Made by a program: the position numbers and the translations under genes
Assembly (NCBI GenBank): GCA_963662275.1
Contig: OY759316.1
Coordinates: forward strand, 3,424,001-3,488,000
Source of the DNA: Candidatus Cloacimonadales bacterium
Lineage (GTDB): Bacteria; Cloacimonadota; Cloacimonadia; Cloacimonadales; DAONDQ01
DNA: 64,000 nt
Direction: 5' to 3'
The notes under the pieces: generated by a model
Databases searched by the model: none
Told to the model about the DNA's origin: nothing
Seen by the model: only the letters and a program-made list of their open reading frames with translations
Shown here: positions 1 to 5,904 of the stretch, piece by piece
Numbering within the stretch: the first letter of the stretch is position 1
Layout of the letters: each line of letters starts with the position of its first letter

Positions 1-1162
1 GCAATTTGATTTGTATTTCTTCATCGGAATCATCAGAAAGAAGTATATCTATGATGTTTATTTTCTTTTGTTCGCTCAACGAATCATATATGTTTTTAAG
101 CTTCACTTTCAAAGCATGATAAGATTCATTTCCAAGTAACTTGGTTTTATTTTCACTTTCGAGATTAAATCTGTAGCAGTCAGTATCTTTTTTCCTAATT
201 AAAGCTCGAACTTTTGGATAGTCTTTTTTATCACAAACATTCATTACATTGAATATTAGATTTCTCTCCTCCTGTGTAAGATCGATGACCTCACCTGTTG
301 TTATATCAATTAACTCAAGGTTATTTATTTCCTGAAGAAGCCTGAATTCCTGGAAGAAGGGATGTGCTCTGTGAATTCTATCCTCTGTTGGTTCTAAATA
401 ACATTTTCCTTTGATAGTTGGCTTTAAAGGTCTTTGAGTGAATATGACTTTATATATCTCATCTTTCAAAGAATCTGATAATTCTTTGTGATATTGTCTT
501 TGAGTATTCCAAAGAGTATTAAATTCGTTTTCTATCATCTCACGAGTAGGAAATATCTTTTCATCAGCAATATCTGATTCGTATCTGAATTTGGTTGGTT
601 TCTTATGATGTTGGTCATTGAGATTGACTTTACAATTTATGTTCCATAAATATTCGCCGATTGTGCGTACTTTTGTTTCAGTTAGTTTGTGTTGTAGATT
701 TGATATAGCATCAGATATCTTTGTTCCTTTTTCTTGTGCATTCTCTTTTCTGTTACTCTTAAAGCCTCTTCTTTTTGCTAAATGTATGAAAGCTCGAGAA
801 ATCTCATAAAGAGTAATTTCTTTATCTAAAGCTCTATGCCTTATTTCAAGAGGGTCTTGCATAAAGAGAGAAGTTCTCTCCTTTTCATTCTGTGGTAGAA
901 GAGAATGAGCATCTAAGCAATTCAATAATTGTTCCCTGCGTAGAAGATAGCGATCAAGATTCTTTCGGATAGAACGATAGTTTCTTCTTTTTACACTCAA
1001 GGGTTCTTTAGTTTTGTCATCTCTGCCATCAGGGAATATACGTACACCCATTTTGATAATATCAATCGGATTATCATTTGAATCCAGTTTAAGCATGCAC
1101 CATCCGATAGAAGTAGAACCCATATCGATACCAAGTCTGTAATTTTCTTTAGTTACTTTCAT
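1..1162 (-). CDS. cas9: Type II-C CRISPR nuclease Cas9, 5' part (runs off the left edge; absent from the ORF track)
   Basis: Manual translation from ATG 1162 (GGAGG upstream): MKVTKENYRLGIDMGSTSIGW (RuvC-I), MGVRIFPDGRD, Arg-rich bridge helix KRRNYRSIRKNLDRYLLRR, HLAKRRGFKSNRK, IFTQRPLKP, KCYLEP..RAHPFFQEFRLLQEINNL. Frame is open for 387 codons to the edge. Confidence 0.97.
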   Translation of the reverse strand, partial: MKVTKENYRLGIDMGSTSIGWCMLKLDSNDNPIDIIKMGVRIFPDGRDDKTKEPLSVKRRNYRSIRKNLDRYLLRREQLLNCLDAHSLLPQNEKERTSLFMQDPLEIRHRALDKEITLYEISRAFIHLAKRRGFKSNRKENAQEKGTKISDAISNLQHKLTETKVRTIGEYLWNINCKVNLNDQHHKKPTKFRYESDIADEKIFPTREMIENEFNTLWNTQRQYHKELSDSLKDEIYKVIFTQRPLKPTIKGKCYLEPTEDRIHRAHPFFQEFRLLQEINNLELIDITTGEVIDLTQEERNLIFNVMNVCDKKDYPKVRALIRKKDTDCYRFNLESENKTKLLGNESYHALKVKLKNIYDSLSEQKKINIIDILLSDDSDEEIQIKL

Positions 1163-1219
1163 TTTTTCCTTGACCTCCGCACAGAATTTGTGTATCTGTA
1201 AATATATAACCTTAATTAA

Positions 1220-1304
1220 TTTGTTTGTAAAATGGTGTCAAGCTGTTAATAAGGTTTTTACCAACAAATGCCTTTCCAGATTCCGATCTGGTTAGGCTTT
1301 TTTT
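1220..1304 (+). ncRNA. Putative tracrRNA, divergent from cas9
   Basis: Anti-repeat-like GGTGTCAAGCTGTTAAT, then nexus-like AAGG..CC, then hairpin GCCT..CCAGAT-TCCG-ATCTGG..AGGC (1270-1297) and a T7 run. Lies directly upstream of cas9. The 5' end is approximate. Confidence 0.72.
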
Positions 1305-1307
1305 ATA

Positions 1308-1606
1308 TTTATTTTCACTTTTTTTAATTTTTTTTCAAATGCTCCCTCTTTCGAAGTTCGAAGGACGAAGTGCGAAGTTCGAAAGAAGAGAATAACAGAC
1401 AGATTTATTTCCACAAATCCCTGCTCTGTAATTCTGAACTATAAATTTCTTTAAAATCTTCTCTGTATCTGCTTTTTAAAGTTTTCGTACTTCGCACTTC
1501 GAACTTCGAACTTAAGATTTATTTTTCATTTTTTAAAAATAAATCGAAATGCTCCCTCGATTTGGGCAAAAAGCTCCCTCCTATATATATATGAGAGGCG
1601 TTTTTG
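1308..1606. repeat. Composite repeat: inverted CGAAGTN heptamer tracts (1351-1384 / 1482-1513) between ~41-bp imperfect direct repeats (1308-1348, 1518-1558), plus a TA-loop hairpin
   Basis: TCGAAGTTCGAAGGACGAAGTGCGAAGTTCGAAA versus TTTCGTACTTCGCACTTCGAACTTCGAAC; both direct repeats end AAATGCTCCCTC. Confidence 0.75.
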
Positions 1607-1722: not shown

Positions 1723-2209
1723 ATGAAACCCAAATTCAATCACAGACAGCCAGAAAGAGCGAAGTCCGGAAATACACCCCGATGTCTTGAGAATCTTCGA
1801 AGTTGGAGAATAGCTCAGAGTCTTACTGAGACATGGACAGATGCCAATATTTGGGAAAACGTATGGATGGAATGATGGAACATCATCCTGGATTTCTTCT
1901 AATCGAGAAACCATAACCTGGCAATCAACTACCGCCAATGACGATAATACCATACCAGCAATTCAGAATCTCTGGTTATCTGCTTATCCGAATCCTTTCA
2001 GTAGCAACCTGAATGTCCAGGTCAACAGCAAATTAACAGCCCCTGTTTCTGTTCAACTATTTAATCTCAAAGGACAGCTTGTATACGCTGATAAAACAGA
2101 ACCAAATCACTCAATCACAATCAACAAAACGTTAAGCAACGGTATCTATTTTCTGAAGGCAAGACAGGGGAATGATACCTGTGCACGTAAAATCATCCAT
2201 ATCAAATAA
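1723..2209 (+). pseudogene. Fragment of a secreted protein with a T9SS-A/FlgD-like C-terminal domain, probably truncated or frameshifted
   Basis: ORF 1841-2209 has AYPNPF..LFNLKGQLV..LSNGIYFL..KIIHIK but no signal peptide. An overlapping upstream frame (ATG 1723) reads WRIAQSLTETWTDANIWENV and then stops. Confidence 0.5.
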
Positions 2210-2580: not shown

Positions 2581-5500
2581 TTACACTGTCACATACTTGG
2601 CATCAACAGAATATCCCTGGTCTTTAACGATGGAAAGATCCTGGACGAGAGTGATATAATTATCAATTTGCTTTTTGTCTGGAGTATGTCCTGACTTGTA
2701 ATCAATTATGAGTATCAGTTTATTCTTTTCATCGATAAGAAGACGGTCGAGATGATATGCTTCCTGGTATTTACCGAAAATAGTGAATTCAGTAAACACT
2801 TTATTCCATTTTGTTTTATCAAAGAGTGAACTCTCTGCTTTTACAAAATCACGGACACTTGTCTTTACTTTTTCTAATTCAGCAGGATTGAGATAATGTC
2901 CATATAACTCAGTCGTTTTAGAGATAGCCATAGTGAATTCATTCTCTTCTCCATAGGACAGAAAAGACATCATGAAATGAGTGGCATTGCCTATCATATT
3001 GCTCTTATTAACAAGGTAGCTTTGTTTCAGATCAGATTTCAAATAATCCTGGAGATTCTTCTTTTCAATAGCATACTTGCTTCTGTCTGTTTCTATATAA
3101 TCGTTGAAATCAACATTCATCACATTCTTTTTCATTGCTTCAGATAATGCCTTGTCTTGTAACGTCCCATACAAGGCTTCTAATGTAAATTTCTGGATAT
3201 CCTGCACCCAGCCATTCCCGGAAACGGTGTGATAGAGAACTTGCAGCAGAAGTTTTGGAATCGAGATATCTTCCTTGGTTGTTGTGATTTTCTCTGTCGC
3301 GGCTGCAATTCCGTCCTTATTCTTATAAGCAACATACACAATCAAGTTTAAAGCAGCTCGAGTAAGAGCAACATAAATGGAATTCAGTTCTTCGATGGCT
3401 TGCTGTTTTGTATTATTTTCAGCCATTGTTGTTAGTTTAGTATTTGGAATAACGCCATCATAATTGCATGTATAAGCGTATTGTTCCAGCCTGGAGAACA
3501 TAGGTCTTTTCAATTCCATGTATATTTTCAAATCTGTGGATGTACCACCTCTTGCCCCTTCTGCTTTCGTATAAAAGAAAACATTATTGAATTGCAACCC
3601 TTTGGCACGATGAATTGATAGAAGAGTCAGTCCTTCTTTTGTCTGCATTCCAATTTGACCCATGGATTTATTCTTTTCCAATTCTTTGCAAAAAGTCATA
3701 AAACCATGCAAAGTCAATGGTTCATCAGCTTTCTGCTGCTCAAAATCAGCAACGATATCCAGGAAACGGTGCAGATTCTTGATATCATTATCATATTGCC
3801 AGATCTCTGTAAAATGGTAAGCTCTGATGATCTTAGAACAGTAATCCAGTAGATTCTCCTGTCTAAATGATTCCATAACCTCGAAAACCTTGGCTATTTC
3901 AGGAAAAGCCAACAATTTAGAAGTTAACTTCTCCTTTTCTGAATTCCTGATGATTACCAGGATACGTTTTAAAGTATCAGCATCAAGGAGTACGGCATCA
4001 GAGCGCAGGAATTTCAACAAATCAAGCCAACGTTTCCGAAGGGTAAAACGCAATAAATACATCAGCGGTTTTACTGATCGATGATGTAAAATGGAATAGG
4101 TGGATTCCCAAATATAATCGATGCCGTTTTCTGTCAGTACGGCTGCAATATTCTTCAGATCTATATTCCGCCGTGTTAAAATGACTGTCTCATTCATAGA
4201 TAATTGATTATTCCTGGGATCAATGAGAGGAATGACCATATCTTCCACAAATTCCCGAATGGCTGACTCGTCATTTGAGACTGTATTTTCTTTATCCTCT
4301 GTTAGATTCCTGAAACGAACCTTCACTCCGCCAATCATTTCCCGATGCTTTGGTTCGGGTTGAACAAGTTTATAATCCCAATCAATACCATGAGCAGCTA
4401 AATTTAATATCATATTCTCATGAAGAAAAACTGTGTTGATGAAATTCATCACAGGTTGATAAGAACGGAAGGAAATGTTCAAATATTCCTCATCACAGTG
4501 AGTAAGTACTTTCTTCATATTGATCAATAAGTCTCTTTCCCCTCCCCGCCAGCGATAAATGGATTGCTTTTCGTCCCCAACAACGATCACACCACCATAA
4601 GGTTTCGCAGTTTCACCACTGATCAGTTCCCTGATAATAGGCAGCAAAATCTGAAACTGAAGAATAGAGGTATCTTGGAATTCGTCGATCAGGAGAAACC
4701 GGATACGATTCGTGAGTAATTCGTAAAAACGATTATTCACATAGCCGTAATCCATATCCACAAGAGATAATTCAGGATCATAGAGATACTTATATGTATA
4801 ATAGGCAATATCGCTGTAGGTGAAAATACGTGTTTGGAATCTCAATTCATCATAATATTTGAAAAGCTTACGAGAAAACTGCTTAATTGCATATTGTTCG
4901 AGCAAAAATCTTTTATGAAAGAGATATTCTCCAAAAATACCTGCTGCATCTGCACAACGTTCTTCGAGTTCAGCGGCGAATGGTTCCTTCTTAGAATTGA
5001 ATTTCGTATTATTCCAGAAACTACTGCATCCTAGCCAGAGTGAATTCTTGCGTTCAACTCGTGTTGGCTCTTTGAAATAATCACGAATAAAAGCTGGGAT
5101 ATCGAAATTAGAGCCGTCTCTTCCATCCAACCATTGCTCACGATATTCTTTATTTAGCAGTTTTGAAATCAGTTCTCCCGGATATTTAGCATGGATAAAT
5201 CTCCACCATTCTGTAACAATCGCTATCATCCTTGTAGAATATTCAATCCATTTCGCTTCGGCAATCGTCTCCCAAGCCTTGAACATTTCTTGTGTATCCG
5301 TCTGCATTCCCGATTCCTGTTGCTCTACATAATGGAAGAACCAGCGTTGATCGATCAGTTTCACCAGGAAATCTCTATATGTCTCTATCGTTTTATTCCG
5401 GGATTGCTCAAAAAGAGTCCGGATAATGGATAGATTGTCTTTGCTCAACATGAATTCATAAAGTTTTGGCAGGATGTCATCCGTTGCATTATCATCAATA

Positions 5501-5904
5501 ACCGGTTCCGTTATTCCCAGGAAGGGAGCAACATGCGATTTGAAGATATTGAATAGCAGTGAGTCGATTGTACTGATCTGGAGTTGGTTTTTATGAAGAA
5601 GGATCTGTTGGCGTACACCTTTAAAAAAGGTAATATCTTCATCTGTTATTGAGTATCCGAATATCCCTGTGAATGTCGCAGATAGAGCTTTTCCTTTCTC
5701 GCTGCCAGAGACTAATTCCTCCAAATGCTCATAAATCCTGTTCCGTATTTCTGCCGTGGCTTTCCTCGTAAATGTCACGATACAGATTTCTCGGAAATTG
5801 ATCTCCTGTTTGCGACAACAAAGTAATATATTGATGAATTCTAAAGATAACCTGTACGTTTTACCTGTACCCGCACTGGCGCTGATCACTTTATTCAGTA
5901 ACAT
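2581..5904 (-). CDS. addA: UvrD-family helicase/PD-(D/E)XK nuclease, AddA-like
   Basis: ASAGTGKT, VTFTRKA, LIDEFQDT, VGDEKQSIYRWRG, SIHRAKGLQF, YVALTRA; C-terminal LDRL..IIDYKSG. Confidence 0.9.
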   Translation of the reverse strand: MLLNKVISASAGTGKTYRLSLEFINILLCCRKQEINFREICIVTFTRKATAEIRNRIYEHLEELVSGSEKGKALSATFTGIFGYSITDEDITFFKGVRQQILLHKNQLQISTIDSLLFNIFKSHVAPFLGITEPVIDDNATDDILPKLYEFMLSKDNLSIIRTLFEQSRNKTIETYRDFLVKLIDQRWFFHYVEQQESGMQTDTQEMFKAWETIAEAKWIEYSTRMIAIVTEWWRFIHAKYPGELISKLLNKEYREQWLDGRDGSNFDIPAFIRDYFKEPTRVERKNSLWLGCSSFWNNTKFNSKKEPFAAELEERCADAAGIFGEYLFHKRFLLEQYAIKQFSRKLFKYYDELRFQTRIFTYSDIAYYTYKYLYDPELSLVDMDYGYVNNRFYELLTNRIRFLLIDEFQDTSILQFQILLPIIRELISGETAKPYGGVIVVGDEKQSIYRWRGGERDLLINMKKVLTHCDEEYLNISFRSYQPVMNFINTVFLHENMILNLAAHGIDWDYKLVQPEPKHREMIGGVKVRFRNLTEDKENTVSNDESAIREFVEDMVIPLIDPRNNQLSMNETVILTRRNIDLKNIAAVLTENGIDYIWESTYSILHHRSVKPLMYLLRFTLRKRWLDLLKFLRSDAVLLDADTLKRILVIIRNSEKEKLTSKLLAFPEIAKVFEVMESFRQENLLDYCSKIIRAYHFTEIWQYDNDIKNLHRFLDIVADFEQQKADEPLTLHGFMTFCKELEKNKSMGQIGMQTKEGLTLLSIHRAKGLQFNNVFFYTKAEGARGGTSTDLKIYMELKRPMFSRLEQYAYTCNYDGVIPNTKLTTMAENNTKQQAIEELNSIYVALTRAALNLIVYVAYKNKDGIAAATEKITTTKEDISIPKLLLQVLYHTVSGNGWVQDIQKFTLEALYGTLQDKALSEAMKKNVMNVDFNDYIETDRSKYAIEKKNLQDYLKSDLKQSYLVNKSNMIGNATHFMMSFLSYGEENEFTMAISKTTELYGHYLNPAELEKVKTSVRDFVKAESSLFDKTKWNKVFTEFTIFGKYQEAYHLDRLLIDEKNKLILIIDYKSGHTPDKKQIDNYITLVQDLSIVKDQGYSVDAKYVTV

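Follow-up and report, generated by a model that had tools for sequence, protein, structure and literature searches.

A compact type II-C CRISPR-Cas9 locus with a predicted tracrRNA in a Candidatus Cloacimonadales genome

The first lines of the window, a stretch of 64,000 nucleotides (nt) of DNA from a Candidatus Cloacimonadales bacterium, carry the beginning of a gene for the nuclease Cas9 on the minus strand and, upstream of it on the plus strand, a candidate trans-activating CRISPR RNA (tracrRNA; CRISPR, short palindromic repeats that are clustered and regularly interspaced). When read together with the sequence to the left of the window, these elements belong to what is, with a probability of about 0.88, a complete and apparently intact type II-C CRISPR-Cas9 locus in a bacterium of the phylum Cloacimonadota, with a well-supported tracrRNA and with CRISPR RNAs (crRNAs) read from the plus strand. 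The window corresponds to G000:C1:3424001-3488000 in a single-contig genome of 4,378,784 bp that is 99.97% complete. Its left extension, L009, covers G000:C1:3406001-3426000, so that subtracting 18000 from an L009 position gives its place in the window. An earlier note on this DNA, made from the letters of the window, had named three ways in which its proposal of a Cas9 with an adjacent tracrRNA could fail. All three were checked: the frame is intact, an array is present, and the array repeat is complementary to the putative tracrRNA.

The cas9 gene and its operon

Within the window, the minus-strand open reading frame (ORF) listed as 2..1162 begins with ATG and runs for 387 amino acids (aa) with no stop up to the window edge, as the earlier note had observed, and in the whole-genome sequence the frame continues uninterrupted for 1047 aa. 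The protein motifs quoted in that note are all found in the translation, namely GIDMGSTSIGW (RuvC-I, residues 11-21), RIFPDGR (41-47), KRRGFKSNRK (130-139), and QRPLKP (243-248). The gene had also been described as unannotated. The frame escaped the ORF track used for that note because its stop lies outside the window, and this is an edge effect only, as cas9 looks unannotated because the window edge cuts the gene. The exact protein is already present in a public collection, and its relatives are named 'type II CRISPR RNA-guided endonuclease Cas9' (NCBI) or 'Csn1' (JGI).

The full protein matches the Cas9 equivalog model TIGR01865 at 606.1 bits against a cut-off of 100 (residues 8-1040, model positions 1-1070 of 1070), and it contains the Pfam domains Cas9_a, HNH_4, and RuvC_III. 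Catalytic motifs are present as GIDMG (D13), IVIELAR (E516), QIDHILP (D599, H600), SNKIL (N614), and HHAIDA (H738/H739, D742). Residue D13 of RuvC-I, residues D599-H600 and N614 of HNH, and residues H738-D742 of RuvC-III share alignment columns with a solved 1082-aa Cas9. Judged from its sequence, the nuclease is apparently intact, with all RuvC and HNH catalytic residues in place. Extending the sequence to the left, a check that had been recommended from the outset, thereby yielded not only an intact 1047-aa frame with HNH_4 and RuvC_III but also cas1, cas2, and the array.

In a comparison with solved structures, the best matches are 8ja0, 6kc8, and 6jdq (chains of 1082-1092 aa; E 4.5e-68; residues 5-765 aligned), which are taken here to be Neisseria meningitidis Cas9 (Nme1Cas9), and the top 14 solved matches are all Cas9 chains of 1055-1154 aa. 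In the same search, chains presumed to be of the Staphylococcus and St1 types match far more weakly (E 1e-29 to 1e-33). Residues 766-1047 gave no sequence alignment to a solved Cas9 chain. In known Cas9 proteins, the corresponding region holds the wedge (WED) and protospacer adjacent motif (PAM)-interacting domains. Because these residues do not align, the PAM of a Neisseria-type Cas9 cannot be transferred to this enzyme.

The genes cas9, cas1, and cas2 all lie on the minus strand and abut or overlap one another, with the array located beyond cas2. Type II-C loci are defined by an operon of only these three genes (Chylinski et al. 2013, PMC3737331, excerpt). The Cas4 family (PF01930) has a single match in the genome, at 1997541-1998092, which is 1.4 Mb from the locus and beside another cas1. 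The Csn2 family (PF09711) has no match in the genome, although control genomes were likewise blank and this search is therefore weak on its own. Neither family was matched in the 12 neighboring ORFs scanned. The architecture is thus that of type II-C, since a cas9-cas1-cas2 operon is found with no csn2 or cas4 nearby. The subtype proposed in the earlier note agrees with this layout and also with the best solved relatives, Cas9 proteins of 1082-1095 aa that are presumably Neisseria- and Geobacillus-type II-C enzymes.

Homolog names place this Cas9 clade in Candidatus Cloacimonadota / Cloacimonetes. The best relative other than the protein itself is 58% identical (1237 matches at E <= 0.001 among 7999 candidates scored). 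In G002, a genome of the same genus, Cas9 identity is 63% over the N-terminal half and 54% over the C-terminal half. A block at the cas9 ribosome-binding site (RBS), CTTGACCTCC on the plus strand, also precedes cas9 in the relatives whose upstream sequence was inspected (L023, L024, L025, and L035).

A tracrRNA candidate upstream of cas9

The candidate tracrRNA gene is about 75-95 nt long and occupies approximately window positions 1211-1304 on the plus strand, about 50-140 nt upstream of the cas9 ATG. A BLAST search with the array repeat reveals an exact 14-mer complement at window 1233-1246; outside the array, no match to the repeat is longer anywhere in the 4.38-Mb genome. This segment pairs perfectly with repeat positions 4-17, and positions 1248-1250 pair with repeat positions 1-3 over a 1-nt bulge, whereas between 1211-1226 and repeat positions 18-33 there is only weak, A/U-rich pairing (A/U and G/U pairs). 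The location originally suggested for the anti-repeat, 1220-1250, was close, although the predicted duplex spans 1211-1251: the array repeat is complementary to 1233-1250, and weaker pairing reaches back to 1211. According to RNAduplex, the duplex between repeat positions 1-34 and window 1211-1251 has an energy of -25.8 kcal/mol, and cofolding gives -43.4 kcal/mol.

Directly 3' of the 14-mer, TAATAAGG occupies positions 1247-1254. The cofold then predicts a short nexus-like hairpin, a linker, a bipartite hairpin, and a run of seven T residues, in that order. These BLAST and cofold results recover the succession of anti-repeat, nexus, and terminator that had been seen by eye on the strand opposite cas9, upstream of its ATG. 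The 79-nt stretch at 1228-1306 folds at z = -3.83, and none of 200 shuffles (0/200) folds as well.

Conservation of this module was examined by searching 201 genomes of the same order. Cas9 homologs are encoded in 34 of them, G000 (the window's own genome) included, with 40-63% identity for the full-length ones, and 20 relative loci were fetched from those genomes; a single-protein search of genome contigs gave no close loci. An array is present in 17 of the 20 fetched stretches. In the relatives' repeats, the 5' 19 nt of the plus strand (GTTnCnnCTTGACnCCAAA) are common and the 3' half varies. In 19 of the 20 relatives, the strand opposite cas9 carries the same module 20-140 nt upstream of the ATG: first the anti-repeat, then A(T/C)AAGG, next a GG...CC hairpin, and last a hairpin that is GC-rich and has a T-tract. 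The 20th locus, L041, has just 64 nt of upstream sequence.

An alignment of 20 module sequences, including that of the window, contains 15 invariant columns. RNAalifold predicts 13 base pairs from these sequences, and at 11 of the 13 both sides have changed with pairing kept. The 10-pair stem of the terminator shows changes on both sides at every pair (10/10) across the 20 genomes. In the nexus hairpin, which is represented by alignment pairs 52-63, 53-62, and 54-61, the third pair has changed on both sides in four sequences. Moreover, the anti-repeats of eight relatives (G012, G032, G074, G072, G042, G001, G037, and G106) are near-perfectly complementary to the 3' half of their own, different repeats, with duplexes of -35 to -51 kcal/mol. 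Such covariation between the repeat and the anti-repeat, which reside at two separate loci, is expected of a tracrRNA and excludes chance. In the window and in its nearer relatives G002, G017, G168, and G077, contiguous pairing between repeat and anti-repeat ends after CCA:UGG, which explains the short duplex in this sub-clade.

A number of results weigh against the assignment and must be accounted for. The genome-wide BLAST E-value of the 14-mer is 0.32. No Rfam family was matched, and the seven weak matches obtained in that search fall far below the gathering score. A simple sigma-70 scan found no plus-strand promoter in 1163-1232, and a simple terminator scan does not flag 1270-1304, a hairpin it missed because its pattern disallows internal loops. 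The anti-repeat is short here, with 17 contiguous bp and a bulge. Finally, two other 150-nt windows of L009 reach -28.7 and -25.9 kcal/mol with duplexfold, compared with -25.8 kcal/mol for the proposed anti-repeat. Because these two unrelated windows and the pairing of the two minus strands score alike, duplex energy alone does not single out the anti-repeat at 1211-1251; its exact match, its position, and its conservation do. The segments at L009 225-450 and 8400-8625, which have low duplexfold energies, were considered as sites of an alternative tracrRNA and were rejected, as neither has a BLAST match of at least 11 nt to the repeat.

Taken at face value, the genome-wide E-value of the 14-mer and the blank Rfam search might suggest that the match arose by chance and that 1270-1304 is merely the terminator of a neighboring plus-strand transcript. 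However, there is no plus-strand gene to the left for such a terminator to serve, that space being taken up by cas9 on the other strand, and 19 of the 20 relatives show this arrangement too, with anti-repeats that track their own repeats. In addition, a 14-mer match on either strand within the ~140 nt upstream of cas9 would be expected by chance only about 2e-5 times, by our own arithmetic. A coincidence of this kind is hardly credible. The tracrRNA is real as a conserved element, and both its expression and its binding by Cas9 are predicted.

The array, its strand, and its self-matching spacers

The array starts after cas2 and comprises 20 repeats of 36 nt with a 66-bp period. A BLAST search with the repeat gives 21 rows for these 20 repeats, of which 17 are exact, one has a single mismatch, one is split, and one, at the cas-distal end, is degenerate. 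Eighteen of the 19 spacers are 30 nt long and the other is 31 nt. On the plus strand of the window, the repeat reads GTTACAGCTTGACACCAAAGCTCTTTGACTTAGTAC.

We infer that the crRNAs are read from the plus strand, opposite cas9, because of the repeat half that would lie beside the spacer, the order of the tracrRNA modules, the T-run that follows the hairpin CCTAACCTATC...GATAGGTTAGG near cas2, and the ends at which the self-target mismatches described below are found. Only the plus strand gives the 5' to 3' order of anti-repeat, hairpins, and T-tract that Cas9 guide RNAs need, and only there does the covarying hairpin with its T-tract read as a terminator. Similarly, the plus-strand reading places the well-paired, conserved half of the repeat next to the spacer. 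The alternative is that crRNA and anti-repeat both come from the minus strand, which would make the complementary stretch a piece of the leader 5' of cas9 and not a divergent tracrRNA gene of its own. Duplex energies are symmetric in this respect (minus/minus -26.8 versus plus/plus -25.8 kcal/mol), and the degenerate repeat is cas-distal, as expected for an array with its leader next to cas2. Yet the well-paired part would then be the 3' end of the repeat, far from the spacer, trimming would remove the conserved repeat half, and the anti-repeat would be followed only by the cas9 RBS and ORF, with no hairpins or terminator. Transcription of the guide from the cas9 strand is accordingly regarded as very improbable.

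The preferred direction, from the plus strand, carries a cost of its own. The degenerate repeat becomes the first one of the array, an unusual place for it if transcription depends on one leader promoter upstream, and this first repeat abuts an apparent gene fragment. At the other end of the array, between the last repeat and cas2 (L009 14755-14783), lies a perfect 11-bp hairpin, CCTAACCTATC / GATAGGTTAGG, followed on the plus strand by ACATTTTAT. As read directly from the flanks, a T-rich run follows the hairpin only on that strand, and the hairpin is a possible terminator that would keep array transcripts from going antisense into cas2. Transcription of the array in the direction opposite to the cas operon has been described for N. 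meningitidis and C. jejuni, and 'upstream of cas9' is among the four usual sites of the anti-repeat (Chylinski et al. 2013, PMC3737331, excerpt).

A mechanism can be proposed from these features. The array would be transcribed from the plus strand, and each crRNA, once processed, would consist of a spacer followed by GUUACAGCUUGACACCA... The anti-repeat of the tracrRNA would pair with the 5' part of the repeat through 17 bp and one bulge, and Cas9 would bind the AAUAAGG-nexus region and the 3' hairpin. If the enzyme is active, its RuvC and HNH sites would cut DNA that matches the spacer next to a putative 3' PAM.

Two features of the locus might indicate that such a system is no longer at work. 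First, a composite insertion sequence (IS) of 4559 bp splits the array by its position within a repeat. Like other members of the IS21 family, it has istA, istB, terminal inverted repeats (here with repeated TGAGCCA motifs and sharing an identical core of 33 nt), and a short target duplication (5 bp, ACACC), and it differs from them by a nested IS. The genome contains 10 copies of the IS21 ends and 39 copies of the nested IS. The other nine IS21 copies are ~2.69 kb each by the spacing of their end matches, and thus they lack the nested element. Contigs from three public runs join L009 10488 straight to 12358, representing the IS21 form without this element; the contigs of the four runs compared with the array covered almost none of its spacers.

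Second, when the 19 spacers were searched against the genome by BLAST, spacers 6 and 7 gave strong off-array matches, each of 28/30. The target of spacer 7 is inside a tape-measure gene (PHROG tail families, E 2e-25), and that of spacer 6 is inside a 145-aa ORF 1.2 kb downstream, in a co-directional run of genes resembling a prophage. In both self-matching spacers, the two mismatches sit at the 3' end as read on the plus strand. Should the crRNA come from that strand, these mismatches would fall in the PAM-proximal seed, as escape from an active Cas9 would leave them, but an inactive system would explain the tolerance of self-matches equally well. The 3' flanks of the two targets, GGGTGTTG and CATTGCCT, have only TG at positions 4-5 in common, and with n = 2 and possible escape mutations this similarity is given no weight. 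A bolder variant, in which Cas9 guided by partly matched spacers would regulate the prophage by binding alone, with no cleavage, has no support.

Searches for other targets were negative. No protospacer was found when a 955-nt stretch of the array was compared with 50,697 phage records, and a search of 203 genomes of the order yielded nothing but other arrays. Stretches of spacers 6, 7, 17, 18, and 19 (5 of 19, as exact strings) likewise gave none in viral contigs, nor did one spacer stretch in metagenome contigs.

It could therefore be argued that this is a real II-C system that has lost its function, and that decay or silencing is the reason why a split array and self-targeting spacers are tolerated. 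In keeping with this idea are the IS21 composite with its nested IS inside a repeat of an IS-rich genome, the 28/30 matches of spacers 6 and 7 to a resident prophage, and the lack of protospacers for any spacer tried. On the contrary, cas9, cas1, and cas2 have unbroken frames and intact catalytic motifs, 17 repeats share one sequence and another departs from it at a single base, and the tracrRNA module is intact and like that of the relatives. Furthermore, the self-target mismatches occur where escape from an active Cas9 would select for them, and the array could stay expressed despite an IS in one of its repeats if these have promoters of their own. Loss of function is considered unlikely on balance, though by no means negligible.

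Promoters embedded in the repeats are known in Neisseria. By our own reading, the repeats here have a reminiscent arrangement: TTGAC(A/G/T) occupies positions 9-14 of all full-length repeats, and after 16 nt there follows, at positions 31-36, a T/A-rich hexamer, which is TAGTAC in the window's genome and TAGAAT, TTTAAT, or TAAAGT in relatives. Two observations speak against a promoter function for these elements, as TAGTAC has no final T and pairing with the tracrRNA also places a constraint on TTGACA. Repeat-embedded promoters are thus offered for this array as a hypothesis only. Building on it, a tentative scenario, one we hold to be possible but doubtful, would have the sub-clade of the window, G002, G017, G168, and G077 combine an unusually short, bulged 17-bp duplex with RNase III-free crRNAs made from repeat promoters, in which case the IS would silence nothing and the prophage would have been forced to escape an active Cas9.

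Neighboring features and comparison with known systems

Table 1. Positions of the features of the locus and of the two self-matching spacer targets
Feature	Position	Strand	Basis or remarks
tracrRNA anti-repeat (predicted)	window 1211..1251	plus	Repeat BLAST, RNAduplex, cofold; kept in 20/20 aligned sequences
Nexus-like hairpin GGTTTTTACC (predicted)	window 1253..1262	plus	Cofold, RNAalifold; conserved AAUAAGG before it
tracrRNA terminator (predicted)	window 1270..1304	plus	Bipartite hairpin 1270-1297, then T7 1298-1304
cas9, first 387 of 1047 codons	window 1..1162 (ORF listed 2..1162)	minus	RuvC-I (D13), arginine-rich bridge helix, REC lobe
cas9, whole gene	L009 16019..19162; left end G000:C1:3422019	minus	Runs past the left edge of the window
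cas9 RBS, GGAGG	window 1174..1178	minus	11 nt 5' of ATG; read directly from the sequence
cas1	L009 15129-16016	minus	295 aa; TIGR03639 cas1_NMENI, 262.8 bits
cas2	L009 14810-15145	minus	111 aa; TIGR01573, 83 bits
IS21-family composite, 4559 bp	L009 9172-13730 (G000:C1:3415172-3419730)		Inside the 5th repeat from the cas-distal end
istA	L009 12478-13563		NF033546, 220 bits; 361-aa ORF, may be shortened
istB	L009 9394-10245		NF038214, 225 bits; Pfam IstB_IS21, 201 bits
Nested IS, 1869 bp	L009 10489-12357		480-aa MULE/IS256-like transposase; between istA and istB
Spacer 7 target	G000:C1:1555055-1555084 (L042 15055-15084)	plus	Mismatches at positions 28, 29 of 30
Spacer 6 target	G000:C1:1558207-1558236 (L042 18207-18236)	minus	Mismatches at positions 26, 30 of 30

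Several other features lie near the locus or are related to its components. Between the tracrRNA terminator and the next gene, a 47-nt direct repeat with 72% identity (window 1302-1348 and 1512-1558) ends in AAATGCTCCCTC. A short dispersed repeat made of GAAGTTCGAAGG/GTGCGAAGTTCGAA units, including inverted copies, is found at window 1332-1399 and 1483-1513. It has 41 other matches in the genome at E <= 0.001, some of them in tandem sets such as that at 1928660-1928867, and resembles a REP-like intergenic element. Farther along, window 1841-2209 (plus strand) encodes a protein of 122 aa that has a C-terminal sorting domain of type IX secretion, and 2581-5904 (minus strand) encodes a UvrD/REP-type helicase of 1107 aa whose C-terminal extension is long. 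The helicase was considered as a Cas4-like accessory protein and set aside, as it has no Cas4 or PD-(D/E)XK match in Pfam.

Elsewhere in the genome there are two further cas1 genes, at G000:C1:1998738-1999589, with the cas4 match beside it, and at 3092853-3093674, within an 896-aa open frame that suggests a fusion protein. The genome therefore probably contains two more CRISPR-Cas systems. An array in G002 (G002:C21:29250-31065) matches that of the window's genome at 74-75% over ~900 nt, which is consistent with a common repeat and different spacers; the cas9 gene of G002 is on another contig, C113.

Among characterized systems, the locus most resembles the II-C system of Neisseria meningitidis. 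Both have an operon reduced to cas9, cas1, and cas2, repeats of 36 nt, spacers of 30 nt, and a Cas9 of similar size (1047 versus 1082 aa) in which RuvC-I, the bridge helix, the REC lobe, HNH, and RuvC-III align over residues 5-765. The AAUAAGG junction that follows the anti-repeat is also the same in Neisseria. There are clear differences as well, since the tracrRNA is encoded between cas9 and cas1 in Neisseria, whereas the one proposed here lies divergently upstream of cas9. Unlike in Neisseria, the predicted duplex has just 17 contiguous bp with a bulge, and residues 766-1047 of the protein are unaligned. Other compact II-C enzymes, such as 5x2g (E 5e-30), presumably Campylobacter jejuni Cas9, and 8uza (E 1.4e-62), which together with 8uzb is taken to be a Geobacillus-type Cas9, are more distant than the Neisseria-type chains. 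An array read opposite to the cas operon, as predicted for this locus, is reported for Neisseria and likewise for C. jejuni (PMC3737331, excerpt).

The closest counterparts are found within the phylum itself. Cas9 proteins from Cloacimonadota metagenome-assembled genomes belong to the same clade, are ~1030-1090 aa long, and have the same set of Pfam domains as the window's Cas9, and the fetched genomes of the order share the locus layout, the conserved 5' half of the repeat, and the tracrRNA module. No experimental work on a Cloacimonadota Cas9 was found among the papers listed by a full-text literature search (six of nine matches), judged by title and abstract. The term 'Cloacimon' was not found in the supplements of one Cas9 catalogue (PMC7606464), whose relevant file was accessible only in part. 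Large computational catalogues of PAMs exist (PMC12996302, excerpt), and these may already list a predicted PAM for this Cas9.

These findings leave the general understanding of Cas9 systems unchanged, and the split array, the short anti-repeat, and the self-targets are details rather than surprises. What the locus does provide is one more II-C Cas9 of compact size (1047 aa), complete and verified, from Cloacimonadota, a phylum that is largely uncultured. With the gene, the repeat, the predicted crRNA strand, and the putative tracrRNA defined, there is enough information for single-guide RNA design and a PAM test. The organism has an IS-rich genome in which an element has inserted into the host's own CRISPR array, and it retains self-matching spacers with mismatches at the presumed seed end. 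Together, these features may represent a small natural record of a host Cas9 in conflict with a resident prophage.

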